Position numbers and translations under genes: made by a program. From positions 54,025 through 74,024 of the forward strand of contig CAJNYD010000400.1 in NCBI GenBank assembly GCA_905331295.1: a stretch of DNA of 20,000 bases. Direction: 5' to 3'. Source of the DNA: Rotaria socialis. Its lineage: Eukaryota. Positions 1 to 20,000 of this stretch are shown here, piece after piece. A model generated the notes under the pieces. The model did no database searches. It worked only from the letters and a program-made list of their open reading frames with translations, and had not been told where the DNA came from. Numbering within the stretch: position 1 is the first letter of the stretch; each line of letters starts with the position of its first letter.

Positions 1-150
1 TCTCATTAAAGTATTTATTTTCACTTTGGACACGAAAAGAATGTAGTTTTTTCGAGTCACCTATGAATATGTCGAATTTACGTCACTCCGACCCATATAG
101 TTTTTCTTTTATTACATAAAAGAAAACATTGGAACTGCTGGTAAGTATCT
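1..150 (+). repeat. Left arm of an inverted repeat pair (partner 3683-3831); continues beyond the window start
   Basis: The reverse complement of 1-150 aligns to 3683-3831, including the shared core GTCGGAGTGACGTAAATTCGACATATTCAT and AAAGTGAAAATAAATACTT-AATGAGA, with scattered substitutions and indels. Confidence 0.9.
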
Positions 151-1241
151 TGTAGAGAAAGCAAAAAACATATTGAATCACAGTATTCAATATAAGAAAT
201 ATTGCAGGCGCAATAGTCTTTGTTCATTCAAGTATTTAACCGAGTACCTACCTTTGATATACAAAATTATGATTCACATCATACAGATTCTCATCATAGA
301 TGAAAAGAAGTTCGTGTCAATTAAAATACTCTAAATAATATTCGCTTTCATTGAATATATTTGTTGAATACTTTTGATCAGATGGATTGTGGGCGTTGAT
401 CTTCATGTTGTACATTTGTTGTGTTTATAGGTTTCAGGGAACTGATTTACGTTATTTGGCAATGGTGATATATACGAGGAACAAAAATGTGCACCATGAA
501 GTCTTTGCTTAATTATGCAATTAGCTTCTTACAAATACTAATGAATATTACGATGTTCTTTCCTATATTCAAGGAGTAAAAATTAGATGCATTCATTTCA
601 TAATTGGTATCGATCTTATTTCTCTTTAATTTTGTGATAAAGAACAACTGCAGCGACGTAGGATTTTAAGTCAAATCATCAATTCCATTGGTGACGAACC
701 AAACGTAAGTGACCAAGTCTCGTATTGTAGCTACTGGATGTTGTATTTGGTCGAAACAGAAGTTATTCAAAATAATAAAGATAGAATCCAATTGTTTTTG
801 TTGCCATTACATATAAGAATTGTGTAAAATCAACAGAAAAAAGCATGTATCGTTGATTGATTTTGATGAATAAATGTTCAGATTTTATTGATTATTTTCA
901 CTCTTTTTGTTTAAAATCGATTTAATATTTGGTATAAGCAATGCTTTCAATGAATATTGCTTTATTCGAAAACACTATAGAAATTGAGTGCAGCTGTTTC
1001 ACTTCTGAATAACTCATCTGCAATTTCTTTGTGCTTACTATATCGACTTTAATCAAAAATAATCAAAACGATCAATAAAAACTCGATGGTTTTGGTCACG
1101 CTTTGATTAGAATTGATTTTTAACCGCGTAGAAATCGATTTAAAATTCATTATTCTGATCTGACTTTTCACATAACCGCCACTTATTCCTCGTACGATTC
1201 TCTATATTTTCTGTCTTATTCGTGTTAGTTTGAGACGGTAA

Positions 1242-1620
1242 ATGAATGATATCAGAAACAGCATGATGATAAAAGAAAAGGCTTTAGTAGAAATGCGATA
1301 TCTTTCATTACACCGACGAGGATTGGCTCAAGCAATTAAAATGAAACAAAGCTAACTGGAAGATCCCATTTAATTGAATCAGCTTTGTGCAGCATAAAAT
1401 GTAAGTAAATTAGAAATTTAGGATTGTTGCAATCATCACTAGTTGTTTAATAATTTTGTTTTGTTTTTCTCCTTAACGTCTTCATAGACTAATACTGGCA
1501 TAAGAGACTAAATTATATTATTTTTTTTTTCGAATTTTAGAAGGCAAGAATCAATAAACGAGAGAACAACCAAGGACGGGGCTATTCAAGTGTTGTTAAA
1601 CAAGCAAGTTCCAATAGCTC
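1242..1620 (+). pseudogene. Possible decayed coding fragment of unknown family
   Basis: ATG-initiated frame MNDIRNSMMIKEKALVEMRYLSLHRRGLAQAIKMKQS* with further in-frame stops, a GTAAGT donor at 1401 and a polypyrimidine-AG acceptor at ~1540. No recognisable motif. Confidence 0.25.
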
Positions 1621-2217
1621 TAGTATCATCTAGATTATTCTACCGTAGCTTATATTATTTTCCATTGATAAAATGTTGATTAAAAAGACACAGTGAAAGA
1701 AAGCATTCAGATAGTTTATCTATTATTATCGTTGTGAGTGCTATACTTTGTTCTTTGTAATATTATCTATTAAATCTATCAAGAATTAGAATGAGCATCA
1801 TTATTAACTTATTGTTTGATGATGTTCAGTTTTGAATAGAATAAAAAAAAATGATATCAAAAATATCGAAATCGATAAAAATAAAGATTCCCATGTAGCT
1901 GTAGCTCTCTGTGTACACTCCCTCTATAGAGTTTGCCTATCATACAGTATAAGAGCCGATGAATTGAAGGTTCTTTATTATTTCAGTGACAAATTGGTTG
2001 CGCTGTAATTTGTCCTTATCATCCTTCGTATACAATTGTGTGTTTTTATCTAGGCTAGATGTTGTATGATAAAAGAAAATGCCAACGCAATAAATACACA
2101 TTGAAAGTTCTGTTTTCGTTTACGTTTATCAAAAAGTGTTTATTCACAAAAGGCAGCTTTACTCGTCTTGTCACATATTTCAACAGCCTAGCATTTTTTA
2201 ATTGCCTCTTTTCAATT

Positions 2218-2962
2218 ATAAAAAAAAAACTAGCCGTATTGGTTGCGTTTCCAGTCATAGTCATTCTGATTTGTTATAATTCAACAAATCCAAAATATTT
2301 GGGGCTACACATTTTACACTCTTTAATATCAATTAAAAATAGTTTCGTGCCCGATACAAACAGACCTATGTTGAGTCCCGAATATCGAGCACTTGAAAGT
2401 ATGCTTTGAGGAAGACCTCTCTTTCAAATCGATCCAAATCTGGATCCGCTAAAGCAAGCGAAAAATATACGTGCATCCTTTCCACTTGATACAATTGTTC
2501 CTCGTTCATTTTCATGCCACGCAGACAAACATGCATATGAAAACGGAGGACACACAGTTGATGCACATTGGATTCATCATGAAAGAGCTAAACCAAAATA
2601 AAATACTGATAGAATCATCATTTATCTGATTGGTGGAGGTTACACAGTCGGCGATGTGCAAGGCAGGTAAGCATGAATACCTTGACTGATGAAAAGAAAA
2701 ATAGGGAGTATCATGTAAGATAGTTATTACATTATTGCTGTCAATCCTATGTAAATATGCAAATTTTGTATTTTGTTTACTAGTCTATATCTATAGTGGT
2801 CTTGAATGTGATTTTTCTTGACTTTTCGATATCACTGTAATTCATTTGGACTATCGTCTTGTTCCTGAACATTCATTGTCATCAGCAGTTGATGATATAC
2901 TCACACTTTACCATGCACTTCTTCATGATGAGATTTATACTTCTCGGCTACCAATTATGGAA
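2218..2962 (+). pseudogene. Alpha/beta-hydrolase (HSL/Abhydrolase_3 esterase-lipase family) pseudogene, truncated before the nucleophile motif
   Basis: Hydrophobic N-terminus KKLAVLVAFPVIVILICY; IIIYLIGGGYTVGD at ~2611-2655 (HGGG oxyanion motif with H>I); an intron; then YSGLECDFS*LFDITVIHLDYRLVPEHSLSSAVDDILTLYHALL (DYRLAPEH motif, 2849-2872). Stops and frameshifts are present, and no GDSAG follows. Confidence 0.8.
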
Positions 2963-3384
2963 GTTTAGCATTTATACTACTGACGAGAACATTTCAGATT
3001 CAAGTGGTATTGATATGGGAGTTATAAATATATGTCGATAGTTTTTCCTCCAATGAATATTGATTGAAAAATAGGATTTATTTTTTTCAAAATCTTAATA
3101 GAAACGATGATATTCTATTGTAATTTATTCATCGCATTAAGTTCCTCGGCAACTATTCAATGTTAACTATCATATTAGTTCTGTGATAGTTTCATACAGT
3201 TGTCAATAGTTGCAGTGATAATATCTCACTAACAACTTAATACTCGTTGTGCACGGTCTCATAGAATGCATTCATTTACAATATGTTTTATTTACAAAGA
3301 ATTGAATTAACTATACTGAACATTGCTTGTCGTAGACTTTCTATTTAACATCTCATTCATGGTAGATATTCAGTTGTTATCAAT

Positions 3385-3475
3385 CTGGCCTCGGATTCCT
3401 CCTATATTTTCTATATTTAAAAAAATTCCTATTTTTTCTCCTATATTTCGATGAATTTTCCTGTATTTCCTATAA
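3385..3475 (+). repeat. Cluster of CCTATATTT-like motifs, probably one end of a decayed MITE
   Basis: Repeated cctatattt / cctatttt / cctgtattt / cctataaa within 90 bp. No partner end found. Confidence 0.35.
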
Positions 3476-3682
3476 AAATGAAAAAAAAGTAGAAAATTGA
3501 TAAAAAACCGCTCTTGTTTTAGTATAATTTTCATGTTTTTTAAACAAATCTATTCGATAATTATTGATTCTTTTGTATTCTTAGAATTTTTTTACAGGGA
3601 CTATTTTATTTACAATCTCTTTTCACATTATCAAACGGACAAAATGAAAATAACTGACTATTTTAAGTATAGATATTCAAAC

Positions 3683-3831
3683 ANATACTTACAAGCAGTT
3701 CTAGTGTTTCCTTTTATGTAATAAAAAATCTATATAGGTCGGAGTGACGTAAATTCGACATATTCATGACTGGCTCGAAAAAAGTACATTCGTTTTTTTT
3801 GTCAAAAGTGAAAATAAATACTTCAATGAGA
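3683..3831 (-). repeat. Right arm of the inverted repeat pair (partner 1-150)
   Basis: Reverse-complement match to 1-150. The repeat may extend further right, but its partner would then lie outside the window. Confidence 0.9.
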
Positions 3832-6730
3832 ATTTCTGGTAATCTACACCATCGTGTTCTCTAGAAAACTTTATACTTTTAAAAATCACCTGAATAAGAA
3901 ATTTCTAACGATCACCTACGGAAACATTATCTTTTTCATTCGTGTCAAGTATGACTTAAAACCATTTACATAAAAAAAAAACAGTTGTTGATGTATACTA
4001 ATTACATTCTTATTTTTGATAACAATGGAATATACTTTTTCGAACTTTTTGAACCATTATATTCGACTTTTAACTCACTGAGATCTAAATAGAGTAAAGA
4101 AAAACGAACTTCGTAATTGTCTGTATGTGTTTTAAGGAATCAAGAAAGAGGTATTCAGTCTCACTATGGAATTGAAACAAAAAATATTTAAAAAATTCAC
4201 AATCATCAAAATATGGACAATAATATGATTCTTTGACGTTGAGATAGATTTTTGAAGAAGCTGATGATCATTACAAAACGATCGTCACATAAGTCATTCT
4301 GCACTACTGTAGTAAGTTTCGCATTTTGACTTTCAACGGATTGCGTAATCAAACGTTTTCATGAAGCATACATCTTAGCATAGGTTAGATTGAGATTGAC
4401 ACAATGTTTGGACTCTTTTAACCAAAAGGTAGCTCAGTCATGACAAACTATTTTTCCACAGCCATCTTTTTCAAAGGATCTGTAGATTTATTAGTTATCT
4501 TTGAATCATACAAAATAGACAATAGAATATTTGATTATGCAAGCTTTATAAAGATAGCAACATTCCACAAATAAATTTAATAAGATTGGTGTTATTTGTG
4601 GTAATGAGAAGACGCATTCGATTAGCAGTTTTATGTGAAGAAAATCGCTTGAGGTAAATTCTATTTGATGATTGTCAATGAATTATTGTTAATCACTGAC
4701 CACATAGTATCACAATCAGATGGGATAACGTTGTTCCAGAAAAATTGACAATATTTGTGATATTGGTCTCAGCTTGTTATAGCGTTTTTTTGCAACTCTG
4801 TGTTGATGAATAGATTCATTCTTAATGTTATGCGTTGCTCATTGCGATACTTGAGTTTAGCATAGCAATAGTTTTCTAGTGCATATTTTCTTGTAGCGTT
4901 TTAAGAACCAACAAGCGTACTATGAAGTTCTCGGATTCCAACAATATGCTTCAATAAAGTCAACATAAAATATGATTCAGATGAGGACAGAAGCTTAACA
5001 TATTGAAGTAAAAGTTATCGGATTGAAAAAGTTTCTTCAAACGCTATTGTCAAAATCTCAAAAGGAGCAAAGTGTAATGAAAAGTTGGCAAAATACATGC
5101 CGTCATTCTCTCTATCTGGTATGAAAATCATCAGATGTTTAGGAATAAATCTTTTTCAAATGTCAAAATTTAATAAGAAGCATGTACTGATTCGTTTCGA
5201 TTGGTATTTTCTCTCACAAATCAGTTCTACTCTAGATCAATACCCGGAACGACATTTTTGTTTATTTCTTGAGAAGCATTTGCACAATATGTTTCAAAGA
5301 GTTGTAAGATGTTATAGTCGCCATTTAATAACAAAATAGTTGAAGAACACGCCATATTCGATGGATGCATACCTTTGAATCCTCCTTCCAAAGAATGCTA
5401 TGTGATGTATGAGCTGGATAATCATCTGCGACGATCATTGACTTTTGCACATCTATCGTGACATCGATCATGAATAACTATCGATTGAGGATGAGAGCTA
5501 TAGTTCAATATTTTGATAAAGAATGGCAGATAAAATAATACACATACTGATACTGCGCATTATCGATGGATTTTAATCACAGCTATGTGACATCTATTTG
5601 TATAACTCTATCAGAATCAAACATGTTCAAGGTTCCAGTGTAATCGAACGAAAGCTACAAAAAAAACTGGTGATTTTCTATCTGGGATAGTCAGCAGTCT
5701 AAGTGATAATACTTTTTTCAGCACATTTGATTTTGGTACTAACCAATGATTGTGTACCTGTGATTTTTTTTCACTAAACTATCAAATGTCAGAAAAATTG
5801 ATAATTTTTAAAGAGATCAGGATCATATTACTACAAAAAAACCACTATCCACGCGGTTGATACATGAATCGATCATTTTTTTTTATCGAGTTTTACTAAA
5901 AATAACTAATCAAATCTGATGCTCATCGTTTCTTAACTACTTGTTTTTATTGATATCACGCATTATTTCATCTTTGAAATATAATACATTCACTGTTATT
6001 TCAAAGATTAACGATTCGAAAATCTTGTGTTATGTGAACTAATTAATGTTCTAAAATAATTACCCATACGAAAAACTATATATACTCAATTGAGACTAAT
6101 GAGAAAACGGGTACCGACCTTCTCTAACGAACCATATCTTCTGGTGATACAATACCGGCCCAACTGATTTGCTCAATAGTGTTCAAAACTTTTTTACTGA
6201 AATGCTCAATAATACAATGAAATGCAAGTCTTTGATACGGGTGATTTTTTTCCTAGTCGGCGTTATTGATTTGATAATGTTCTACGTCCAAGCAGCAGCA
6301 TTAAATCCTTGTGGAAGTCTCGGTTCTCAAGAAAGCACTCTTCAATTGATACAAGAACAAAAAGGGGTCACTTCTTTTGTGGATTCGTCATCTTAAGTAT
6401 TTGATATTTTTGTTAAAAAAGTTTTAAGACTTAATTCATCTTCATCGTTCTCTTCGAATTTGTTGGAGATAGAAAATATTTTAAAGAACTTTTTCGCTTA
6501 TCACATAATAGTCTGTTCTTCTATTTCTGATCAATATACTAGGTATAAGAGTAATCGAATTACACAAATTTAACGAGTCTTCGTCTAGAATAGCTTGCTA
6601 ACGCGCAGAGTTATGTATTCCTTATAATATGGTATGACCAAATCGGAAATATTTTGCTTGAATTATACTGTTTCATCGATCATTGTTTTCTTGTTCTCGT
6701 TCTAAACGACGAGATAGATAGGATTATTAA

Positions 6731-7417
6731 GGGCTCCCCCCCTCAGAAAAGCCGATTTTTCAAAAAAAAACGGAATCGAGTTTTTATCATAGGAAGATTC
6801 CCCGTGATTTCCTCTCTCAGAATATATATAATTATTTGAAAAAAAGGTTACGTTTTGACAGACTTATTGAAGAAATACTCTTTCATTTCCCTTACTACCG
6901 CACACCTTTCTAAAAATTCCTAAATGTTGGTCTGAAAACATGGGTCTCAAGCAGAAAAATTGTTATAACTTTCGTTTGGCTTTAGCTTTCCCCGATATTT
7001 TTATTTATTTTAAAGGTTTGAATCTGAGCTAACTTTTCATCGACCGGATTTTCGATATTTGATTCCTGCACTGAGAAAAGTCTGATTTAGTGCGTTTTTT
7101 ATACCTAATTTGGCTGTCATACGGAATAAAATGCTGATAAAAAATAAATAGAAGAGAATTTAAAAATTCCGTCCGATGAAACGTTGCGTATGGATGCTAG
7201 CTTTAATTTGAAATCTACTCGACCTCGATAACTTTCACAGTCAAAAGAGTTATTTCGATTCTCGTGAAAGCTATAAAGCAAGTCGTAAGTCCAGTTTAGT
7301 AAGGTATACATGGCTGAAATTGTTACCACAAGCGTTTCTCACTGCCACCATGTATCCCTGAAAGTTTCAGCTCAAACCTATGCTCAAAACTGGCAAGTCG
7401 ATTCTGAAAGGGGGCCC
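6731..7417. mobile_element. Non-autonomous DNA transposon (MITE) with TTAA TSD and GGG...CCC termini, Kolobok-like
   Basis: TTAA(6727-6730)|GGGCTCCCCCCCTCAGAA ... TTCTGAAAGGGGGCCC|TTAA(7418-7421): an imperfect TIR with TTAA on both sides. Purine-starting termini fit Kolobok rather than piggyBac (CCY). Confidence 0.8.
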
Positions 7418-8144: not shown

Positions 8145-8517
8145 TAGGAGTGTGGATGCATTGTTATCGATATCAATAACAATAACTTTTTTTGTGGTTT
8201 ATTATTGATAACAATAACATTTTTTACTATTTGTTATAAATAACAGATAAATAGCAAATAACTTTTTTTTCTGAAAAAGATCATGTCTCAGTTCGTTGTA
8301 TGTTTTAATTGTATCCACTATATGAGCTGATGCTTGAGAACCAATTTTTAGCTTCTATATTGCTACTTAGCATAGTATAATGGATAAAAACAATGAACTG
8401 AGTTTTCACAAAAAAACGTTGATGTTATTTATCTTTGATTTATAACAAATAACTATCGAAAAAAGTTAGTGTTATTGTTATTAATAACAACAAGATAACA
8501 ATAACTTTTCACCCCTA
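8145..8517. mobile_element. hAT-type MITE (373 bp) with 8-bp TSD
   Basis: GCTAAAAA(8137-8144)|TAGGAGTG ... CACCCCTA|GCTAAAAA(8518-8525), with many subterminal AATAAC/GTTATT motifs at both ends. Confidence 0.9.
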
Positions 8518-8568: not shown

Positions 8569-8836
8569 CAATTTAGGGAATATTATAGATCCAAGTTTGA
8601 ACTGGAATATGTTGTCACCTTTAGGTATAGCCAGATTGAAACCCTTCCTAATCGCTTCGAAGCATCCGATGTTTTACTGTATCGTGACAACCAAATGATA
8701 TTCGTAGTTTTCGACAACACATATCATATTGGCACCTTTTGTACACCATTTGGCCAATCTTTCAACTGTACCGATCAGCTACTTGCTTGGCCAGATGCAT
8801 CATTAGCCACGACAGACTCCCAGTTCGAAGGGATTA
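8569..8836 (+). pseudogene. Host exon of an uncharacterised, possibly beta-propeller-like protein, cut at the left edge of the large element
   Basis: Open frame ...IETLPNRFEASDVLLYRDNQMIFVVFDNTYHIGTFC...LLAWPDASLATTDSQFEGI, with repeated FEAS/FEGI blade-like motifs. It switches abruptly to a T-rich tract and the 63-bp array, with no splice donor. The remainder of the 118-aa track ORF is translated repeat. Confidence 0.55.
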
Positions 8837-8866
8837 ATTTATTTTGTTTTTATTTTAATGTGTATG

Positions 8867-9005
8867 CATTTTTATGTATCCTCAGAGCTGAGGAATTTGA
8901 GTGCATTTGGTGTAACGAGAATGGGTATCCATTTTTATGTATCCTCAGAGCTGAGGAATTTGAGTGCATTTGGTGTAACGAGATGGGTATCGGAAATGGA
9001 TACCC
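8867..9005 (+). repeat. Two tandem 63-bp units plus a short inverted partial unit (left array)
   Basis: Unit CATTTTTATGTATCCTCAGAGCTGAGGAATTTGAGTGCATTTGGTGTAACGAGAATGGGTATC starts at 8867 and 8930. It is followed by AAATGGATACCC (8994-9005), the reverse complement of GGGTATCCATTT. Confidence 0.95.
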
Positions 9006-9886
9006 TATTGTAAGAATGCGTGTCTTCATAATTATAAATAAGGAAAAGTGATGCTATGTTGAAATTTATTGTATTCATGTAGTCAGCTTTATGCCAATGT
9101 TTATGGATGTGTTCAGATTTGTTTAATGAGTTTTGTAGATGGCGTGCAATTGCAGGTAAGTGTTCGTTGAACAACTTGATTTTCACCGGGTCACAATTTA
9201 TTACAACTTTGATCACAATGACTCGTTGAAGTCGTGTTGAAACTGTAGCATGCTGTGTGGTTGGTGTTATTGTGGATTGTCACATGTATGTTATGTGAAT
9301 TGTGCCTTATATTATTTTGTTTGCAGTAGGACCTGTCAGTAGGAAAATTCGTGATTCGTTCTCGAGAAGTTTTTTGAAAATGGTAGTAGTATCCTAGTTT
9401 GATTTTTGAACTAAACTTATTGAATTCGACGGAAGCGGTAAAAAGGATGTGAAGATAAGTGCACCTGTGTGGAAACACTATCAATAAAAGACATCTCTGG
9501 CTATTCACATACAAATACGCTACCGAGTTGTGTAGCAATCCACGGTGGATGACGAACAAAATATTAATCAATATAAGCCATCAACAAATATCCGAAAATA
9601 TTTTTCAAAACACAACATATTCCCATAATAGAGCATTGAGCATGAAATTATGAAGAACCTATAGTATCGTTAACTCGTTAATCGTTTAATTGCAACACAT
9701 AAACTTCAAAAGACCATATTCACTTATTTTAACACAACTATTTCACCGTTAGAAAAATTTAGTTGAAAATCTAACTTGATACATGAATGTGTTTGATAGT
9801 TAAAAGTTTTTCTGATTATATTCTTCTGCTCAGATTTATTTTAAACAGCGTCTCCATTCTCAGCATGAACGAAATTCGAATCGATA

Positions 9887-10223
9887 GTCGACATCAATCT
9901 TCTTGCTTTAATACAAGTTATCGAATCGTTTATAAATGAATTAATTCGAAATTCGAAATTATCTGCACTTTTTTTCACAGAATTCAATCTATTGAATGAT
10001 TCGTATGTGTAACTGTTTTTAATTTTAATTACGTTCATCTTTTAAGGCATATTCCGATATTTAGATTTCTGATTGTTCTGAATACATCTCAATGGGTGGT
10101 CGACATCTATCTTTATTCTTCAATAGATACTATTATATCGTCTGTCGATGAATTAAAACGAAGTTATCTGCGCCTTTTTCACAGAATTCAATCTAGTGAA
10201 TGATTCGTAGGTGTTATTGTTTT
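9887..10223 (+). repeat. Diverged direct duplication, period ~212 bp
   Basis: GTCGACATC...ATGAATTA...TTATCTGC...TTTTCACAGAATTCAATCTA(T/G)TGAATGATTCGTA(T/G)GTGT occurs at 9887-10020 and 10099-10223. Confidence 0.85.
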
Positions 10224-10995
10224 ACTAATGATTTTCATTTCTTTTGGGATATCTCAATTGTACAATGACTATTAGAAGAAATATATTTTTATGTCCATAT
10301 GGTACTTGTCAGTACATTGAAATCGATCATATTGAATTGTGTCAAATCAAACATTTCGAAATCATGTTGTGGTGTTCTGCGTTTTAGCCAAACTATTTAA
10401 GAGTTGGTCGGTTAGAATGTTTGTGTTTCAATAGCTTTTCTTTGTATTCAGATGTCGGAAAAGTAGCAATGTGTATAGGAACAAAAACTAAAACCAGGTT
10501 GATGTGAATGTTTGTCTGTGGTATGTTCGAAACTTTTTTTTAATGAATAGGACTTGTTTTTTATTGACCTGGAAAATATATGCAGTTACCTCTAGGATGT
10601 GTATATGGAAGTTTTTGTTTTTTTACAGTTTAACAGGTTAAATAAAATATAATAGAACACCTTGCTTTTAGGAAGGGAGAATGAAGAAAATGCGTTTTGG
10701 TATTTCTTTAGCTTGGAATTAGTTTGTTCACAAACGACTGTATTGATGTTTTTGAGTTCTTCGTAGGTGTAGGGGTTGGTTTGAGTAGAACACATGGCAC
10801 GTTTATGGTTGCCTATGTGAAATTTATCAACGACGAAAGTGAAGTTAGATCTAAAGTATTTGATTTAGATGCAAGAAATATATTTGTTGCTGGTTCTTAC
10901 AATGCATCTGTCCTTTGCGATTTTGTTATTTTGCCACGTTCTAATCGATTCCGTAGTGTGAGAATCAGGCCACATGCATTATCGTATATCAAGTA

Positions 10996-11474
10996 GGGGT
11001 CATTCACTTTTTTTCTCTTCACTATAACGGGGGGGGGNNNNNNNNNNNNNNNNNNNNNNNNNNNNNNNNNNNNNNNNNNNNNNNNNNNNNNNNNNNNNNN
11101 TGGGAAAGCAACCAGATACTATGTACAAAATTTATTCATAGGATTCTCTCTTTTAATGTAATTTTAATCATTTATACCTTGGAAACTTTGTGACACTTTG
11201 TTTAAAAAACAAAATGTCACTTTACACTGTAATGGCAAAAGTAAAACGTCATTTGACTTTTTGTTTTAGATTCCTATTAGAAACGCTGGTGAGGTGTTCT
11301 AGTTCCTGGTTGTTCTCTATTGAAAAGATGATAATAAAGCAGTTAGTCCTTCACAGGCAAACAGAAAGCAACTAATTCTTCAGATGCCTACAATGAGAAA
11401 AGAGATGACATATAGGGTGGGAAATGAGATTCTAAAATCTAGTAAATATGTTGACATAATAGGTGATTGTCACC
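10996..11474. mobile_element. Nested insertion with TA TSD and imperfect TIRs, spanning an assembly gap
   Basis: AAG-TA|GGGGTCATTCACTTTTTTTCTC ... GACATAATAGGTGATTGTCACC|TA-TTTCGG; the termini match at 15 of 22 positions. Removing the insert plus one TA restores minus-strand CCG AAA TAC TTG ATA TAC GAT AAT GCA TGT (PKYLIYDNAC). Confidence 0.85.
11038..11100. other. Assembly gap (N run) after a poly-G tract
   Basis: 63 Ns; the true length of the nested insertion is therefore unknown. Confidence 1.
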
Positions 11475-13552
11475 TATTTCGGTACTTTACTAGAAAATAA
11501 ATTAATGAAATTCGTTCGTATCATGCATTTCTCCGGAAAAGTTTGACTTACGCTGCTGGTGATAGATGCTCGATCGTATTTAGTAAATGATGAATTACAC
11601 GCATCGGTGATTCCGATCGGTATAATTCATCAAAATTCACGATTATTCCACAATTGTATATTGTCAATATTATACCGTACGATGTTTTTCGACTTGCATA
11701 ACGATCATTCCTAGAAGAAATTATGTAACATACATATATAAATGTCAAGTTAAATGTTACCTTGAAACGTTGCAGTCGATATTATCATAATCATTGCTGT
11801 TGTTAATATCTTCAGTTGATTGGTCATTATTTAGATGAACGTGTTTCGGACAAAAATTGGTGTTTTTCCAAAATCCAGGATTTTTTTTGTCTTGTATCAT
11901 CTCTGGACGAAACCCACATCCCCAATCTATATCACCTAATCAGAAAAATGTTAACGTTTTCAAATAGTTTAAATTTGTTTTTACCTAGTTCATTTGAATG
12001 AATAACATCAGTGAATTGACAAACAAATCGATCTGGTTTTTGAAAGCCGTCAATGACAATTGCACCTGAACAATTATCACCACAGCTGTTTCGAACAGAA
12101 TGATTTGACCAGAATAAAATAAATTGGTGTTCCCATATTGGCAACGTTTCATTAAAGTAAGTGTTCATTTGGTGTCTATCACTCATGTTTAATGGAATTT
12201 GTATTTCTTGTGTTTTTGACAAGAAAATTGTTATTAATGTGGAAGAATATATCATCCAAATATTCTCGAACAATCGACGTTCTAATAGTGGTGGATTTGT
12301 TACTTGATTAGATTGCATATTTGAACGAGATAACAATAATGAGAGCATGGTGTCGTTGTATCCCTCAGCAAAATTTTCAAAACCTGAATACTAAAAAGAT
12401 TTGATTGAAAAGATTTTTCCATTCGTATGATAGAATGGATCATAAGAAACCCAGATCTCTTTCGTTACAATTCTCAGTTTAATTATGCTATCTTTTTTCT
12501 TACCAAGTTTACTAAATCAGCAGCGTATCGTAATACTATCTCAATAGTTAGAACAGATTTTCCACCAAAATGAATATATTTTTTATTTTGTATCGAGCCT
12601 GGAACAACAAATCGCTTCGACATTTTAAGAAAACTATTTGGAAAATAGTCTATTTGACAACAGTTAGCAATGTAAATTGTTCCGTTTTCTACACGATCAA
12701 TCAAAAAAACATTGACTTTTTCTTTAAACTGAAGCTTTAATGATTTGCCACAATTTAAACAAACTGAAGTAAATGGTTTAATAGTATGTAAAGATGATAA
12801 TGTAAGAACATGATGATTATTTGAATAATTGTTAATAAGAACTTTTGCATCCACTTGTGAAAAGAGAGGAAACGCAATTTGCTTGGATTTCAACAAGTTT
12901 AAGATACATTCTATAAAACTAGGATCATATGTTTTGCCAAATACCATATCAATCATATTCGATATATCAATATATTTTGATAATATGCAATCATCAAGTT
13001 CAACATCTAGCTGATTCACAAGATTCAAGTGTTGAATTGGAATATTCCTATTCAAGGATACAATAAATATTTCATTTTCATCGGAATTGCTGTTGTAAAC
13101 ATTGGAAAACATCGGAAAAAAATAAAGCATAAATGTGATTATTCGTATCTTTGATTCAATTATGTGTATTCTTATCAATTTTCAATAAATAACCGTTTTG
13201 GTTTTAACTTCTATTTTTATTCTGCTGATCTAATAAAATGAAAGTCAATTCGAAATTCTCTTTCATTGTTGAATAATATATATATTTCAGAAAAAGACAT
13301 AAATATCAACAAACAGATAAAAGCAAAGCCGTACAATCTTAAATAAAAAGTGATCTGTTTCTATCGCAAATACACATAAGAAAAAAAAGTAAACATGAAA
13401 CTTTCGTTTCATGTGCTCCACATGAAAACGACCGAATTAATCACAACAACGTACATCTAAATTTCGTCCAACTAATTTTCATAAAATACATTTCATATGT
13501 TCAATCAAATATTGTTTCAAACGTTTTGAAAGAAAGTTCATTTCTACTGTCA

Positions 13553-15830
13553 TCATGGTAAAACGTTCTTTTTTTTCTTCAATTTTGATCGTTGTGCTTG
13601 GTATTCTTTCCCTGCATTGGTAAGGTTACGCCATCTCTTAGATTTTCTATTGGAATTTGTCAATTCTGGTTGTTCAGAATCCATTGTTTCATTACACTCC
13701 ATGGACGATGCTAAATATAACTTTGATTAATAACATGAGCTTGAAAATAAAATTGTGAACTTACACTTTTCGTCGTCGAGTTGAGTTATTTCTGTTGAAG
13801 CGCTAAATAATTTACGATGATTTGATGTTGAGGGATCAATAATTTCGTTTTCATTAACGATAATTTCGAGATTAGCATATGGCTTGGCTTTAAAAATTGA
13901 TAGACCATATGAAGTAACATATGTATTGTTTCGTGTATCAACTAAAATATGTTAAACATTTATATTGATGTATAATGTTGTACATAGATTGCTAGCTCGT
14001 TCATATTTGAACATTACTCATGCTTGAACGTTTATAGTCATTTGAGTTATAAAAAAACTTGATGTTTGAACAATATTAGATTATGGCTGATAATTTTCTC
14101 CTATTGATAAGAAAAGTCTCTTATAATAAAAATCATCAAAAGAAAATTTATTCGCTTAAGAAAAGTCTTATAATTGAGAATAAAATGATATTTTTATCGC
14201 AAACAAATCGTTCTAATTTAAGATGATGTTTCATTTATGGTGCAATATTGCTCTAGTACTTATAATAGTGATTTTTGATTGTTTCTACCACACGAGGGAA
14301 AGGATTTGTTCTAATTAGTATGAATAAACAATTTAATCTTCGAAAGAAAAGTTACATATATTTTTATAGATCAAAAAACGTATAAAACATATAATTCGAA
14401 AAAGATTAAAGTTTTGGAATCTTTATTTCCTAATATCATACTATATTGGCATCATCGAATTACTCGAAGTCCATTCGTTTTAGTAAAACGAAGATTAAGT
14501 CAATTTCTGTTTATATTCAAAAATATTTGTAAATATGATCATATGAAACTAATTTAGATTGTCTAGAATAGTCCAATATTTTTCTACAAATTTTACACAA
14601 AATTGTTTTCGTTGCCAATGTATTCTACACATATGCATTAAAGAAGATCTTCTATAATTAGTATGGTTGCCTACACCTGATAATACAGATATTTGATTAA
14701 TGTTTAACATCAAAAGCAATTCTTTTTTTATCAAACTATTTTTCTTGAAATCAGTAAGAAAATTCTATAATAGATAAAACATAGGACGAATGTTTTTCAT
14801 GATATGAAAATAATATTTCAAATACTTGAAAATTAAATGAAGAGTTACGCATCGATAAGCATATCATTTAGCTCAAAGTAAAATGAAACGAATTAATAAA
14901 TACTATACGAATGATCTATTGTATGACATAAATGATCGATGTCAATCAAATACAGCTTACCAGTTTTTAAAGTTGAATAGTAGGTATCCAAATTATATAT
15001 TCCGAATTGGGCTAATAATAATGTAAATTCAATCATATCTGCAACAGATTGTGGAACTTGCTTGAGATAAGCATCGCAGTAGCTGGATTTGTTTGCAAGC
15101 ATTTTATCTTCAATGGTTAATAAGCCATGATCAATCAAGATTTGGCATGCTTTATGAACATCAATCATGTTTGTTTTACACGTTCTATTCAATTTAGTGT
15201 TTGACAGAATAACACTTTCAACCAGTAAAATCTTTTTACACAAAAGTTTCATGCCCTCGGACACAAGTGGATTTCTTACAATGCTAATTTTATTTTCATT
15301 GTGAATCGGAACTAGAACAATATGTTAATAATGAATATGCAAATGTTTTAAAAATTACCAATTTGTTGTTTTGTTACTAAAGTAACATTTGTCGCTGTAA
15401 TGGAATTCAAAGAATTTGCTACTTGTGTGATTATATCAGACAAAATATCATGAATCACAATATCGTTTTGTATTTGATCGCTGTACAATCCTCGAGATGA
15501 GCTTGAGTATTCTAAATACAAACTAAAATTATCATAAAAAAATTGTATGTAATATCTCACGATCATCAAATTTGTTAGAAATCAAAGATTGTTGTCGTTC
15601 AGTACTTTCGATCACAACATCATTCTGCTGAATTTTGCCAATAGTATCAAGTTGATCGAAAGATAATACTGGTAAGTCATATGGATTGTAATTGATACAA
15701 TCCAGAATATCATATAAATCATCTAACAAGAATGAAGTCAAACGAATGATATAACAAATTGACTTACTTTCTTTCGCTAATAAACTATCTTTAATCATCA
15801 CGTTTGTTGTAGAACAACGATTAGTTATAT
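13553..15830 (-). CDS. Spliced coding region with a winged-helix-like repeat and a basic NLS-like tail; either the 3' half of the AAA+ gene or a separate gene
   Basis: Exons 15830-15561, 15511-15359, 15311-14961, 13941-13765 and 13710-13553, in frame with GT-AG introns (one of 1019 bp). Core: KKILLVESVILSNTKLNRTCKTNMIDVHKACQILIDHGLLTIE...AYLKQVP. Tail: RKSKRWRNLTNAGKEYQAQRSKLKKKNVLP*. The 5' end is unresolved. Confidence 0.7.
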
Positions 15831-16367
15831 CTTAACGGAGAGAAAAAAATATTACAATGCTATATTGATACATTCTGTAATTGATAGGCATGAGTAGAGA
15901 TCTATTGTTTATTCGGTCTATCAATCTTCATTAAAAATTCGAATTCTGCATTACTGGCTACTAATGATAATAAATATACAAATTGCGACAAGATAATCGT
16001 TCTCTGTAGAGCAAATATACCAGTTTCATTAGATTAAAAACCGCACGTTTACAAAGGCAATAATAATACACATAAAAATGAATTAACGATTAGGCTTTGT
16101 GTAGAGAATTGTGACGAATCAGTATTCATATGATCTAATTTTTCTGCGCAGTTTATGGTTAAATCTTTAAGCAAATTCTTTATGTTAATAAAAATAATAT
16201 ATTCATTTTAAGAACTTGATCTGTTTATAATGGCTGTGATTGAATAGATTTTTTATCAAATATTGTATTCCTGTATTCATTACGCGATAAGTTCTTAAAT
16301 CATCATAGCTGTTTTAATCGTGCAAACACTGGTTCATAATAGAGAATTTCAATACCGATGCAAAGCT

Positions 16368-18919
16368 TCATTCACCTGTATTTTACAGTCTCAATGTTCT
16401 CAAAACAAAGTCGAACTGGTTTCAACCAAAATACTTACTTGAAAAGGTTAAATCGAAATCAAACCCATTTAGTTTTTCTTTCAATAGACTAATCCATAAT
16501 CTTTGTGTTTCTAAAAGTTCTTTGCCACTTTGACACAACGTTGTACTGTTGCAATCAATGCTTTTAGTATATGTATCTAAATATTGTTTCAGTGTTATTT
16601 CGTAGTTGTAATGCAATTCATTTTGAAAACATAAGATTTGTTCATCATTGGATGGATCAGGCAATTGCTTAATCCAACTTTCAATTGCTCGTGATCCAGC
16701 TTTAATATATTTGCCTCTCTTAATGAACGATTTCTTTTCCAAATTCGATAAGACTTCCTTTACATCAATCTTATTTCTTTTATGATCTAAAAGTATAAAA
16801 ACAATGAGATATTGGTAATTGATAAACTGATCAAATTAATTACTATGAAATACACCACTATGAGTAAGATCACTAATCGAGAAGCAATTGACATGATGTT
16901 CAATTATTTTTAATTCGTTAATGGTATTATTTTTAGCTACATTTGTATCAGTGTTAAATAATTTTATTGACTGTGGTAATAAAAGTTTATCAAAAAAATA
17001 AACAGCTGCTTTGGCTGCTGACAATGTAACTTTCATCGAAGATAATGGTGATTTCAATACACTTTTTATTTGAACTTCAGGTAAGTCTTTCAAGTCAATA
17101 TGATCAGGATATAAGCCACTTTCTGTATGAATATCACTAATAATGAATAACCATTTCAAATATACATATATATACATATAATTATCCTAAGGGCATTGAA
17201 AAATAAGTTCTCTGTTTTCTACTTATGTAATTTCACAGTTACTCTGTAGGAAAAAATAGATACTACGGAAACCTTTTTTCAAAACGTTGATCTATGCATT
17301 GTAAAATGACTCCTTTTACCAGCATTATTTTTTATTCGAACACACTCCGGTAACAAAAGGAGAGTCGATAGATTTACTGCTAACATTCATAGAATAAAAA
17401 GTAGATGAATGATTTATATACATACTTATTCTTTTTTGATATTTAAAAGGCATATGAGATATTAACAAAGCAAAAATAAAATCGCAGATGAACATTTGTT
17501 TTAAGTTTCATGTTCTTCTCTATTAGTTTTATACTTACCTATTATCTTTTTGTTGATAGAAATTACGATCAACATTGGCCTTAATTTTTTCAAAAGTATG
17601 CTTTTGAATACGATGAAAATCGATTGAATCAATGTCTTGCAAAACCATTACTGTATCAAAAAGATTCTGAAAAATAACCGCAATGCGTTCGATTAAATCA
17701 GCGCTACGCCGTTGACATGCCTCTAAAAAAAAGATTTTTTTTTGATAACATAAAAATAAAATAATGACCTGCTCGTTTATTAGATGGAATAGTTGTTGAA
17801 ATTTCATCACAACTGTGATTGCTTCGCATCGCCGATAAGATTGGTTTTAGATAAGCTGATGTATCTTCATCATAAATATATATGCGGTGACCGATTTCCA
17901 TACGGGTAATAAATAGATACTCGAGTGATGGTAAGTTGTTTTTCATATCATGCTTTTCTTCAACAAAGTTCTTCTTACTAATGACCCAATATAGAAATCT
18001 TTCATATAAACCTAATAACCAATCAAAATATTTAAAAAAATACTATATTTTAAAAAGAATTTTACTTACCATTCGTCTGATGTGCATCGTAGAAATGCTC
18101 CAATAATTGTGGCCAACGATCCCCAGTAGTTGGTATTAAGACGGTTAGGCTTCGATCGTGAATATTATTGTTTTGTCTCACTGTTGATCGCTGCAACTTA
18201 TATACTCCATTGAAACCACATATTAAGTTAGGATGTATTTCTTTCGCTTTTATTGAATTTGGTTCAAAAAAAGCGAAGTCTGTCAACGGACGATCTTCAT
18301 CAGATGAGATGAATTTCTAAAGCAAAATTAAGCATTTTTCAATTCGAAAGTAACAGCAGTATAATCGTACCGACGACATTTCTAATTCGGAAATTAGTTT
18401 AGCAGTAGTTAAACTTTCCATGCATGTAGTAGAAAATTTGTTATTATTATCAATAAATTGTTCTCTATAATAACGTTCAACAAAATCAAAAGCTTCTCTA
18501 ACAGGTTTTATATAACCGGATTTATGAGATACTATGCAGAAAACAATAATATACTTATTCAATAGAAAATTAAAAACATATACCTGAATTTCCACGTAAA
18601 ATACCATACAACTTTAAATTAGTATATTCCATTTTATCTTTGTCATATAATTTTGATTCAGAAGACCTATAAAAGCAAAAACTATCTAGGATGTTTTTAG
18701 AATAAGAATTTACCAATGCATAAATGAAATTAACACGCACCAGAATAGCGTTAAATCATTTAGTTTTTTACTTCGATAGTTTTCAAAGATCTTTACCAAA
18801 TAAGGTTGATCAGGAAAAAAATCACTTAAGTTATAAGATGCTGTTAATGCCTCACAAAATTCCACGTTGAGACAATCAAGTTCATTTAATTCCTTTATCC
18901 ATTCCGTTCGTTTAGACAT
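16368..18919 (-). CDS. DUF3987/YfjI-like (MCM-related) AAA+ P-loop NTPase with a C-terminal winged-helix-like domain, ~590 aa
   Basis: Exons 18919-18714, 18666-18584, 18531-18371, 18316-18070, 18011-17769, 17722-17539, 17136-16844, 16786-16439 and (tentatively) 16375-16368 join in frame. Motifs in order: Walker A-like LYGILRGNSVSHKS, Walker B KFISSDE, Arg-finger-like NGLYERFLYW, lid helices ADLIERIAVIFQ and VTLSAAKAAVYFF. The exon structure is solid; the family call is by eye. Confidence 0.7.
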
Positions 18920-19880
18920 AATAGAAATCAATAAAATTACAAGTAGCTAAAAGTAAATCTATAAAGAGTAAATGATGAGGGATACTAGACAAATCGATTC
19001 CAAAGAACATTTCATTGAAGATATCTAAGCACAATTTATTAAATAAGTCCTTTTCTTCAATAAATAATTATTCAACAGGTGCTTTATGTTGTAGATATAT
19101 TCTCGCATGTGGAAAACAAAGCATATAAGCAACAGGTACTATACACAGATATTGAAAATCTACTAGTTACATTAGAATCTTAAATAATATTATCAATACA
19201 TGTAACAGGTAAAATAAAACATACATACTACTGGTAACATGGTTAACAAGAATCAACAGTAATTTAGAAGTCATAAGATACAGAAAATCACATAAAATAT
19301 CTATCACAATAGGAACGCAACATTCTAAATACTACCATAGAATATCCGATGTTGTATTTTACAACCAAATGATCTATTTAGATTAAAATTTGGTATATAT
19401 ACACCGACTAATAGAATATACGGACAACAAGGGTCCATTATAAAACAAAGCAAGCAAAAAAATGAATATATTGCCATTACAGACGGAGAGTGGTGACAAT
19501 GCTATCTAACAAACACCTCAGATAATGGCCCATAAGTACTAGTCCGTAACCGTAAAAGCCCTTAAAAAAATTTATTAGAAGAAAAAACTTTTAAGAATAT
19601 ATTTGAATCATATGTGACGGAATAAAATTCTACAGACTACAAATTTCCGCAAAAGCCTTCAAACTGCTAAAATCAAATACCACTCGACAGATGGCAGTTT
19701 ACATTACATTGCATTCGTAAAGCAATTTGATCTTCGATGCATTTCATATAACTAATCCTATCAATACAAAAATTTCAAAAAAATTCCAATGAATTAGCCA
19801 GGTTCACAATCCACTTCGAAAAATCCATTCAATACCAACTCGACAAAAATTCTCCTCAATTCCCCAATATTGAAATAAAA

Positions 19881-20000
19881 CCAAATGCACTCAAATTCCT
19901 CAGCTCTGAGGATATACAAAAATGGATACCCATTCTCGTTACACCAAATGCACTCAAATTCCTCAGCTCTGGGGATATATAAAAATGGATACCCATTCTC
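19881..20000 (-). repeat. 63-bp tandem array (right), inverted relative to 8867-8991; runs off the window
   Basis: CCAAATGCACTCAAATTCCTCAGCTCTGAGGATATACAAAAATGGATACCCATTCTCGTTACA starts at 19881, and a partial second unit starts at 19944. It is the reverse complement of the left unit with only a few substitutions. Confidence 0.95.

Follow-up and report, generated by a model that had tools for sequence, protein, structure and literature searches.

The stretch of DNA analyzed in this work, a window of 20,000 nucleotides from the bdelloid rotifer Rotaria socialis (contig CAJNYD010000400.1, forward strand positions 54,025 to 74,024), probably (at roughly 70%) carries a non-autonomous copy of a likely two-gene bdelloid DNA transposon of the KDZ type, in which the transposase is accompanied by a predicted ring helicase of the MCM/DUF3987 type. 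Two arrays of 63-bp units enclose two intron-containing genes of the same orientation on the minus strand: the gene for a nucleoside triphosphatase (NTPase) and, starting 440 bp downstream of its stop codon, the gene for a KDZ transposase. The usual picture of eukaryotic DDE transposons is that of one-enzyme machines. Exceptions that carry a helicase, such as AcademH and KolobokH, use DEAD/Helicase_C enzymes, and the KDZ lineage appears to keep an MCM-clade AAA+ gene instead. The retention of this gene across families diverged to ~50% identity defines a two-protein system in which one could ask whether DDE elements of eukaryotes are able to move replicatively or to steer their own repair.

The NTPase and the KDZ transposase very probably constitute one co-mobile two-gene element. 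Their linkage was examined by comparing the accession numbers of members of the KDZ and NTPase clusters; accessions are listed for up to 15 members and up to four each, so misses weigh little. Among the accessions listed, 27 of 67 from KDZ clusters are no more than 25 numbers away from one of the 90 NTPase accessions. The same neighbourhood was found in 25 of the 46 KDZ records with a contig of at least 8 kb (chance ~0.001 each), distributed over the KDZ clusters as 12/17, 0/11, 5/7, 6/6, 0/2, 1/1 and 1/2. Each linked KDZ cluster pairs with one family-specific NTPase cluster only, and many of the paired accessions share an identical longest-contig size. Outside this count, the NTPase and KDZ genes of Adineta vaga carry the consecutive locus tags I4U23_004309 and I4U23_004310 on a contig of 18 Mb. 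Gene models matching both profiles (9 of 233 proteins, all with the NTPase first) add four named families. A genuine fusion of NTPase and transposase was considered, but the two parts are joined at varying positions in these models and in the window the genes are separated by a stop codon and 440 bp, so the models most likely arose by merging during gene prediction. In all, by neighbouring accessions or merged models, the NTPase gene lies upstream of the KDZ gene in nine families from five bdelloid species, and is thus not the single-copy gene unlinked to KDZ transposases that the first-pass annotation of this DNA had named as the case against its proposal.

The trees of the two proteins, whose comparison had also been suggested at that stage, agree in all well-supported splits over 12 pairs, with disagreement at two poorly supported nodes (51-71%); over nine families the distances are correlated (Mantel rho 0.65, p 0.0004). 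Given the recurring gene order and the matching trees, the earlier inference of a two-component KDZ element looks right. R. magnacalcarata is the label of four linked families at 44-71% identity, and at least two occur in each of A. ricciae, R. sordida and R. sp. Silwood1; this count was taken from a quick tree with long branches among its distant rows. Bdelloid tetraploidy leads one to expect two old gene copies. Four linked families under one species label exceed that number, which argues for a mobile unit. A search for KDZ loci among 252 candidate stretches gave five loci of 1-3 kb, too short to hold the NTPase; in tblastn with four queries (three NTPase-only proteins and a merged model) none of the five showed an NTPase match. 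Prediction of a complex between a cognate transposase and NTPase, run without alignments, scored 0.00, which is no verdict on their interaction.

The predicted AAA+ partner

The NTPase gene (13553-18919, minus strand) is intact: spliced alignment gives 14 exons, 13 GT-AG introns and a product of 942 amino acids with no internal stop, identical at 942 of 942 positions to the annotated bdelloid rotifer protein P0003, labelled R. socialis. Of the two or three co-oriented intron-containing genes proposed earlier, the orientation and the introns stand and the number is two, as 18919-13553 is a single gene. A third gene was rejected, since the 942-residue model fills the whole of 13553-18919 and the two long open reading frames at 8935-9580 have no Pfam match.

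The protein is predicted to comprise an MCM/DUF3987-like AAA+ domain (residues ~36-438), a winged-helix-like region (441-580), a disordered linker, a winged helix (733-824) and a basic tail. The structure model was built from an alignment of 109 rows, with a predicted local confidence (pLDDT) of 73 and a predicted template-modelling score (pTM) of 0.53; the single-sequence model reached a pLDDT of 32. When residues 36-438 were searched against known structures, the top 11 rows were all MCMs (Z 12.6-15.5; the best with Z 15.5, root-mean-square deviation 4.1 and 269 aligned residues), followed by BrxL (11.8) and ComM (11.2), with the ORC/Cdc6 rows at Z 5.9-6.4 only. IstB, MuB and TnsC are absent from the best 50 structural matches listed, an absence that is inconclusive as evidence. 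The fold check by Foldseek proposed in the first-pass annotation agreed with a helicase-like assignment, all the Protein Data Bank matches listed being MCM chains, and in a viral structure library the best matches were models of a phage helicase, a primase-helicase and DUF3987 proteins (E down to 2.4e-10). Residues 733-824 match winged-helix proteins at Z ~6; the region 441-580 has a helix-hairpin pattern like that of a winged helix, seen only within the whole-protein model.

At the level of profiles, Pfam DUF3987 (PF13148) was matched in four of 109 NTPase relatives (best E 5.1e-11), and Atlas places residues 40-600 with DUF3987 clusters at a score of 0.97 (possibly its own cluster) and at 0.95 for two phage/bacterial clusters. 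PHROGs profiles gave weak matches only (E 0.012 or worse), and sequence searches of solved structures returned nothing significant for the NTPase or the transposase alignment. A search of viral contigs gave 0 of 50 candidates. We predict from the model that the NTPase combines an MCM-like AAA+ domain with a winged helix, in a fold of the MCM clade.

The sequence motifs are largely those of an AAA+ protein. A Walker B-like SSDE motif is present (D156 in 24 of 30 rows, E157 in 22 of 34), as is an Arg-finger-like ERF motif, and two arginines are conserved (R237 in 36/38, R319 in 50/52); distant relatives differ at Walker B. In the P-loop the lysine (K100, 28/32) and the following serine or threonine (S/T101, 31/32) are conserved, within the clade-wide form G-x-S-V-S-(H/N)-K-S. 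Judged from the aligned sequences, this atypical Walker A is conserved across relatives. Thus, of the features read earlier from the translation, the Walker B, the Arg-finger-like motif and the winged helix hold, and the Walker A is noncanonical.

The transposase gene, its insert and the ends of the element

The KDZ transposase gene (10592-13112, minus strand) has 571 codons when a nested insert is skipped, with exons at 13112-12504, 12390-11985, 11935-11761, 11710-11552, 11489-11475 plus 10993-10901, and 10850-10592. The insert-skipped frame contains D at IVIDG, D at YDNAC, DKFH..H and E at CEQ, which we take to be the catalytic residues by the KDZ motif pattern. Pfam KDZ (PF18758) was found in three of 12 transposase relatives, those whose models include the last exon, with scores at or below the curated cut-offs (full-length relative P0070: E 5.6e-06, 26.7 bits against a cut-off of 26.6), and the last exon of the window gene matches it with E 0.0056. 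Pfam CxC5 (PF18718) was found in nine of the 12 (best E 5.6e-05, every match below the curated cut-off) and CxC6 is listed for none. The full KDZ CxC5/CxC6 motif set claimed in the first-pass annotation is therefore retained for CxC5 and KDZ; where CxC6 is expected, a Cys/His insert (C327, C345, C367, H370) follows the first Asp. Most annotated relatives end at the intron 10851-10900 and lack the last catalytic exon, which probably explains why many carry only the names CxC5 or uncharacterized.

The nested insert (10994-11474, 481 nt) resembles a miniature inverted-repeat transposable element (MITE), with a TA duplication and imperfect inverted ends, and it stops the transposase frame at codon 455 of 571. 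It holds a gap of 63 N (11038-11100). Mis-scaffolding at this gap was ruled out by a contig of run X9 that joins 10993 directly to 11475: this is the insert-free junction, so 10994-11474 is a nested insert and the gap lies inside it. With its transposase broken and its partner gene intact, the window copy is not autonomous and could be moved in trans only. Deep short contigs of run X22 (guessed to be RNA, possibly DNA) lie over the insert part 11101-11288, consistent with an abundant MITE family; the coverage of the window by this run is limited to repeats and short pieces.

Between families the transposase has been under purifying selection: against metagenome locus L003, nonsynonymous divergence (dN) is 0.157 and synonymous divergence (dS) 1.54 over 551 codons, dS being saturated against three other loci. 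The transposase ATG of L003 stands directly after a splice-acceptor-like pyrimidine tract ending in CAG (L003 ~180-210); a pyrimidine tract is also present upstream of the window gene (13113-13130) but ends in CCG. An upstream transposase exon, or a transcript shared with the NTPase gene, is possible.

The left array (8857-8991, plus strand, 2.2 copies) and the right array (19880-20000, minus strand, 1.9 copies, cut by the window edge) both read inward. They are mutually inverted over 118 nt at 95% identity and lie 10,905 nt apart, in agreement with the inverted 63-bp arrays ~11 kb apart described before. Every unit contains two near-palindromes, of 14 and 16 bp, and the arrays are likely subterminal sites at which the transposase would bind. 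Searched with up to two mismatches, a 16-nt core matches the window at the four array units only (shuffle mean 0.00); a 24-nt core had no exact match in the metagenome contigs, and beyond the arrays nothing significant is common to the two element ends. Over the arrays the summed contig depth of run X5 is 28,000-50,000, compared with 40-60 over most of the interior, a hundreds-fold difference that is a sign of abundance and not a copy number; the 63-bp unit is clearly abundant. Locus L003 represents another family (74% DNA identity) with 41-bp arrays of its own ~550 bp after the transposase stop. There, at L003 2780-3090, two distinct tandem arrays lie 3′ of the transposase, both of 41-bp units that show no sequence relationship to the 63-bp unit. 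In the window, the interval from the left array to the transposase stop includes a diverged tandem duplication (9879-10223, period ~204-212 bp).

Several contigs bypass the interior and connect the left end with the right array, with joints of 9351 to 19923 (side 63), 8915 to 19939 (side 27, with 37 letters between) and 9833 to 19696 (side 30). From their sequences they look like internal-deletion derivatives, which would have in common the left subterminal segment 8992-9351, ~10-fold elevated in summed depth in X5. By eye, the segment 9325-9350 reappears in reverse complement at two loose contig ends (8927 and 8997). An AT-rich left junction (8837-8856) separates the left array from a coding-looking reading frame (8569-8836, plus strand, no family assigned) that extends up to it. 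In three of four runs, contigs 92-95% like this frame stop matching at 8831 though they continue further, in a comparison that skipped 8832-8867 as repeat, and the left flank would fit an interrupted host gene. In other copies the first array unit is bordered on its outer side by 94-145 letters of different sequence, so that the left terminus of the present copy is probably clipped.

Alternative readings and relation to known systems

Given a co-mobile element, the predicted fold somewhat favours a helicase-type role for the NTPase. The transposase would bind the array palindromes and then cut and join the element ends, while its partner, encircling DNA with the help of its winged helices and moving 5′ to 3′ as one assayed DUF3987 protein does, would unwind DNA at the transposition junctions and let host polymerases copy the element. 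New synthesis from a strand-transfer or excision-gap intermediate would yield copies replicatively or by gap repair, and short array-flanked derivatives would be moved in trans.

A number of observations weigh against reading the window as a copy of such a transposase-helicase element. Concerning linkage, long-contig records of a second R. socialis family (0/11) and of A. steineri (0/2) have no neighbouring NTPase accession, and no NTPase cluster matching these two KDZ clusters was among the 18 matches found (best 7,992 candidates scored); accession adjacency is itself indirect, species labels pool several assemblies, and agreement of the trees would be expected of linked host genes as well. 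Concerning mobility, no terminus, target-site duplication or second-copy flank was seen, and the right array runs off the window; the 63-bp arrays are not restricted to the element and, being very abundant, could flank it by chance; the dN/dS comparison covers the transposase alone; and the insert terminates the two transposase models of R. socialis, while those of R. magnacalcarata continue through, so that the window pair may be one old fixed locus. Concerning the partner, the window protein itself has no Pfam match, PF13148 included, its Walker A reads G-N-S-V-S-H-K-S and not GxxGxGKS, which makes ATPase activity uncertain, the glycine preceding the lysine is absent from 28 of 32 rows (present in 4/32), and the element encodes no primase, unlike phage DUF3987 modules.

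An immobile, domesticated pair of host genes, with arrays from an unrelated high-copy MITE or satellite landed on both sides, would account for the abundance of the arrays, the 95-98% identity of both genes between two sister species, the many short introns and the missing target-site duplication (the left junction being repeat and the right end beyond the window). We consider it very improbable in view of the diverged linked families (four with a single species label, two or more in three further species), the insert that breaks the transposase in R. socialis, the contigs in which the left subterminal segment runs straight into the right array and the coding stretch that appears cut at the left edge. 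The partner might instead be an AAA+ scaffold with little or no catalytic activity, serving to bind the arrays or to protect the element from silencing, as the clade-wide atypical P-loop and the variation of Walker B in more distant relatives would allow; retention of the Lys, the Ser/Thr, the Asp-Glu pair and both arginines across families at 44-71% identity makes this improbable, and MCMs deviate at the P-loop as well.

In IstA/IstB, MuA/MuB and TnsB/TnsC a DDE transposase works with a dedicated AAA+ partner, and IstB, MuB and TnsC are AAA+ proteins of the initiator clade. The same two-gene element could accordingly carry a target-capture ATPase that activates the transposase: pairing and order with the DDE transposase are fixed, two winged-helix-like regions could bind target DNA, and there is no primase partner. 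This is unlikely, though less so than a dead scaffold, since the fold ranks with MCM/DUF3987 helicases; the absence of the three bacterial proteins from the best matches adds little to the argument. Of the earlier analogy to these systems, a dedicated AAA+ protein beside a DDE transposase remains, and target capture is weakened by a fold nearer to MCM/DUF3987 (Z 15.5 versus ~6). From its predicted clade and its eukaryotic setting the window partner thus differs from those of the bacterial elements.

The transposase-helicase element has several relatives among described systems. Like the fungal TET/JBP-carrying KDZ transposons, Cryptococcus KDZ1-3 and the giant KDZ of Ectocarpus, it has a CxC-plus-KDZ transposase and a length of ~11 kb; the fungal second gene is TET/JBP, whereas here it encodes an AAA+ superfamily-6-like protein. 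Cryptococcus KDZ1 is ~11 kb long with 241-bp terminal inverted repeats (TIRs; PMC12810828), and KDZ elements occur with accessory genes and nested insertions (PMC12477816). Kyakuja is described as having no TIRs, CA..TG ends and 7-bp duplications (PMC12730594); the element described here, as far as it is seen, ends in inverted tandem arrays. In the searched text of the same paper, 'ATPase' does not occur and 'helicase' occurs once, for Helitron, with neither word in its Table S1. AcademH and KolobokH are likewise eukaryotic DDE-type transposons with a helicase of their own, and the length of the AcademH duplication has been linked to it (PMC10045372). Their helicases are of DEAD/Helicase_C type (PMC10799480), not ring-forming AAA+ proteins, and their transposases belong to different superfamilies, whereas the partner in the window is predicted to be of the AAA+ ring type.

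DUF3987 proteins are related to MCM and have a C-terminal winged helix (PMC4889955), and one of them is an oligomeric 5′-3′ helicase that binds a partner enzyme (PMC11724360). The predicted MCM-related AAA+ core and C-terminal winged helix of the NTPase are shared with the DUF3987 (PF13148) superfamily-6 helicases such as AgaPH, and with MCM, ComM and BrxL. In contrast to phage DUF3987, the window gene is eukaryotic and intron-rich, is paired with a transposase and not with a primase, and has an atypical Walker A and a second winged-helix-like region. A literature search found no KDZ-DUF3987 element, Repbase and Dfam being outside its scope and a database entry there possible; the titles found on DUF3987, by which most of these papers were judged, were all prokaryotic, phage or double-stranded DNA virus. 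The combination of a KDZ transposase with an MCM/DUF3987-type partner probably represents a two-gene element not described before, which would explain 'uncharacterized' DUF3987-like rotifer proteins as transposon genes and points to a phage or plasmid origin of a transposon accessory gene. A wider proposal, which we put forward tentatively and below an even chance, is that a widespread animal KDZ lineage took a phage-type MCM-like ring helicase as its obligate second subunit and moves replicatively. It would be the first DDE transposon of eukaryotes to have an AAA+ motor of its own, and would parallel the Mu, Tn7 and IS21 two-component systems while being built on a helicase-clade ATPase.

Neighbouring sequences in the window

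To the left of the element an inverted repeat of ~150 bp (87-90% identity; 1-148 and 3685-3831) adjoins a single N and encloses 3.5 kb. Inside it lie decayed coding pieces (~2366-2950), which we take to resemble an alpha/beta hydrolase; Pfam gave nothing for the one piece scanned. The unit 1-3831 is possibly a non-autonomous element with cargo. Short coding-like pieces on the minus strand at ~4085-5500, with no significant Pfam match, possibly represent another decayed element. Two MITE-like inserts were also seen: one at 6731-7417, flanked by TTAA and with imperfect, GC-rich inverted ends, and one at 8147-8515, flanked by TA and with internal inverted repeats and many related contigs.

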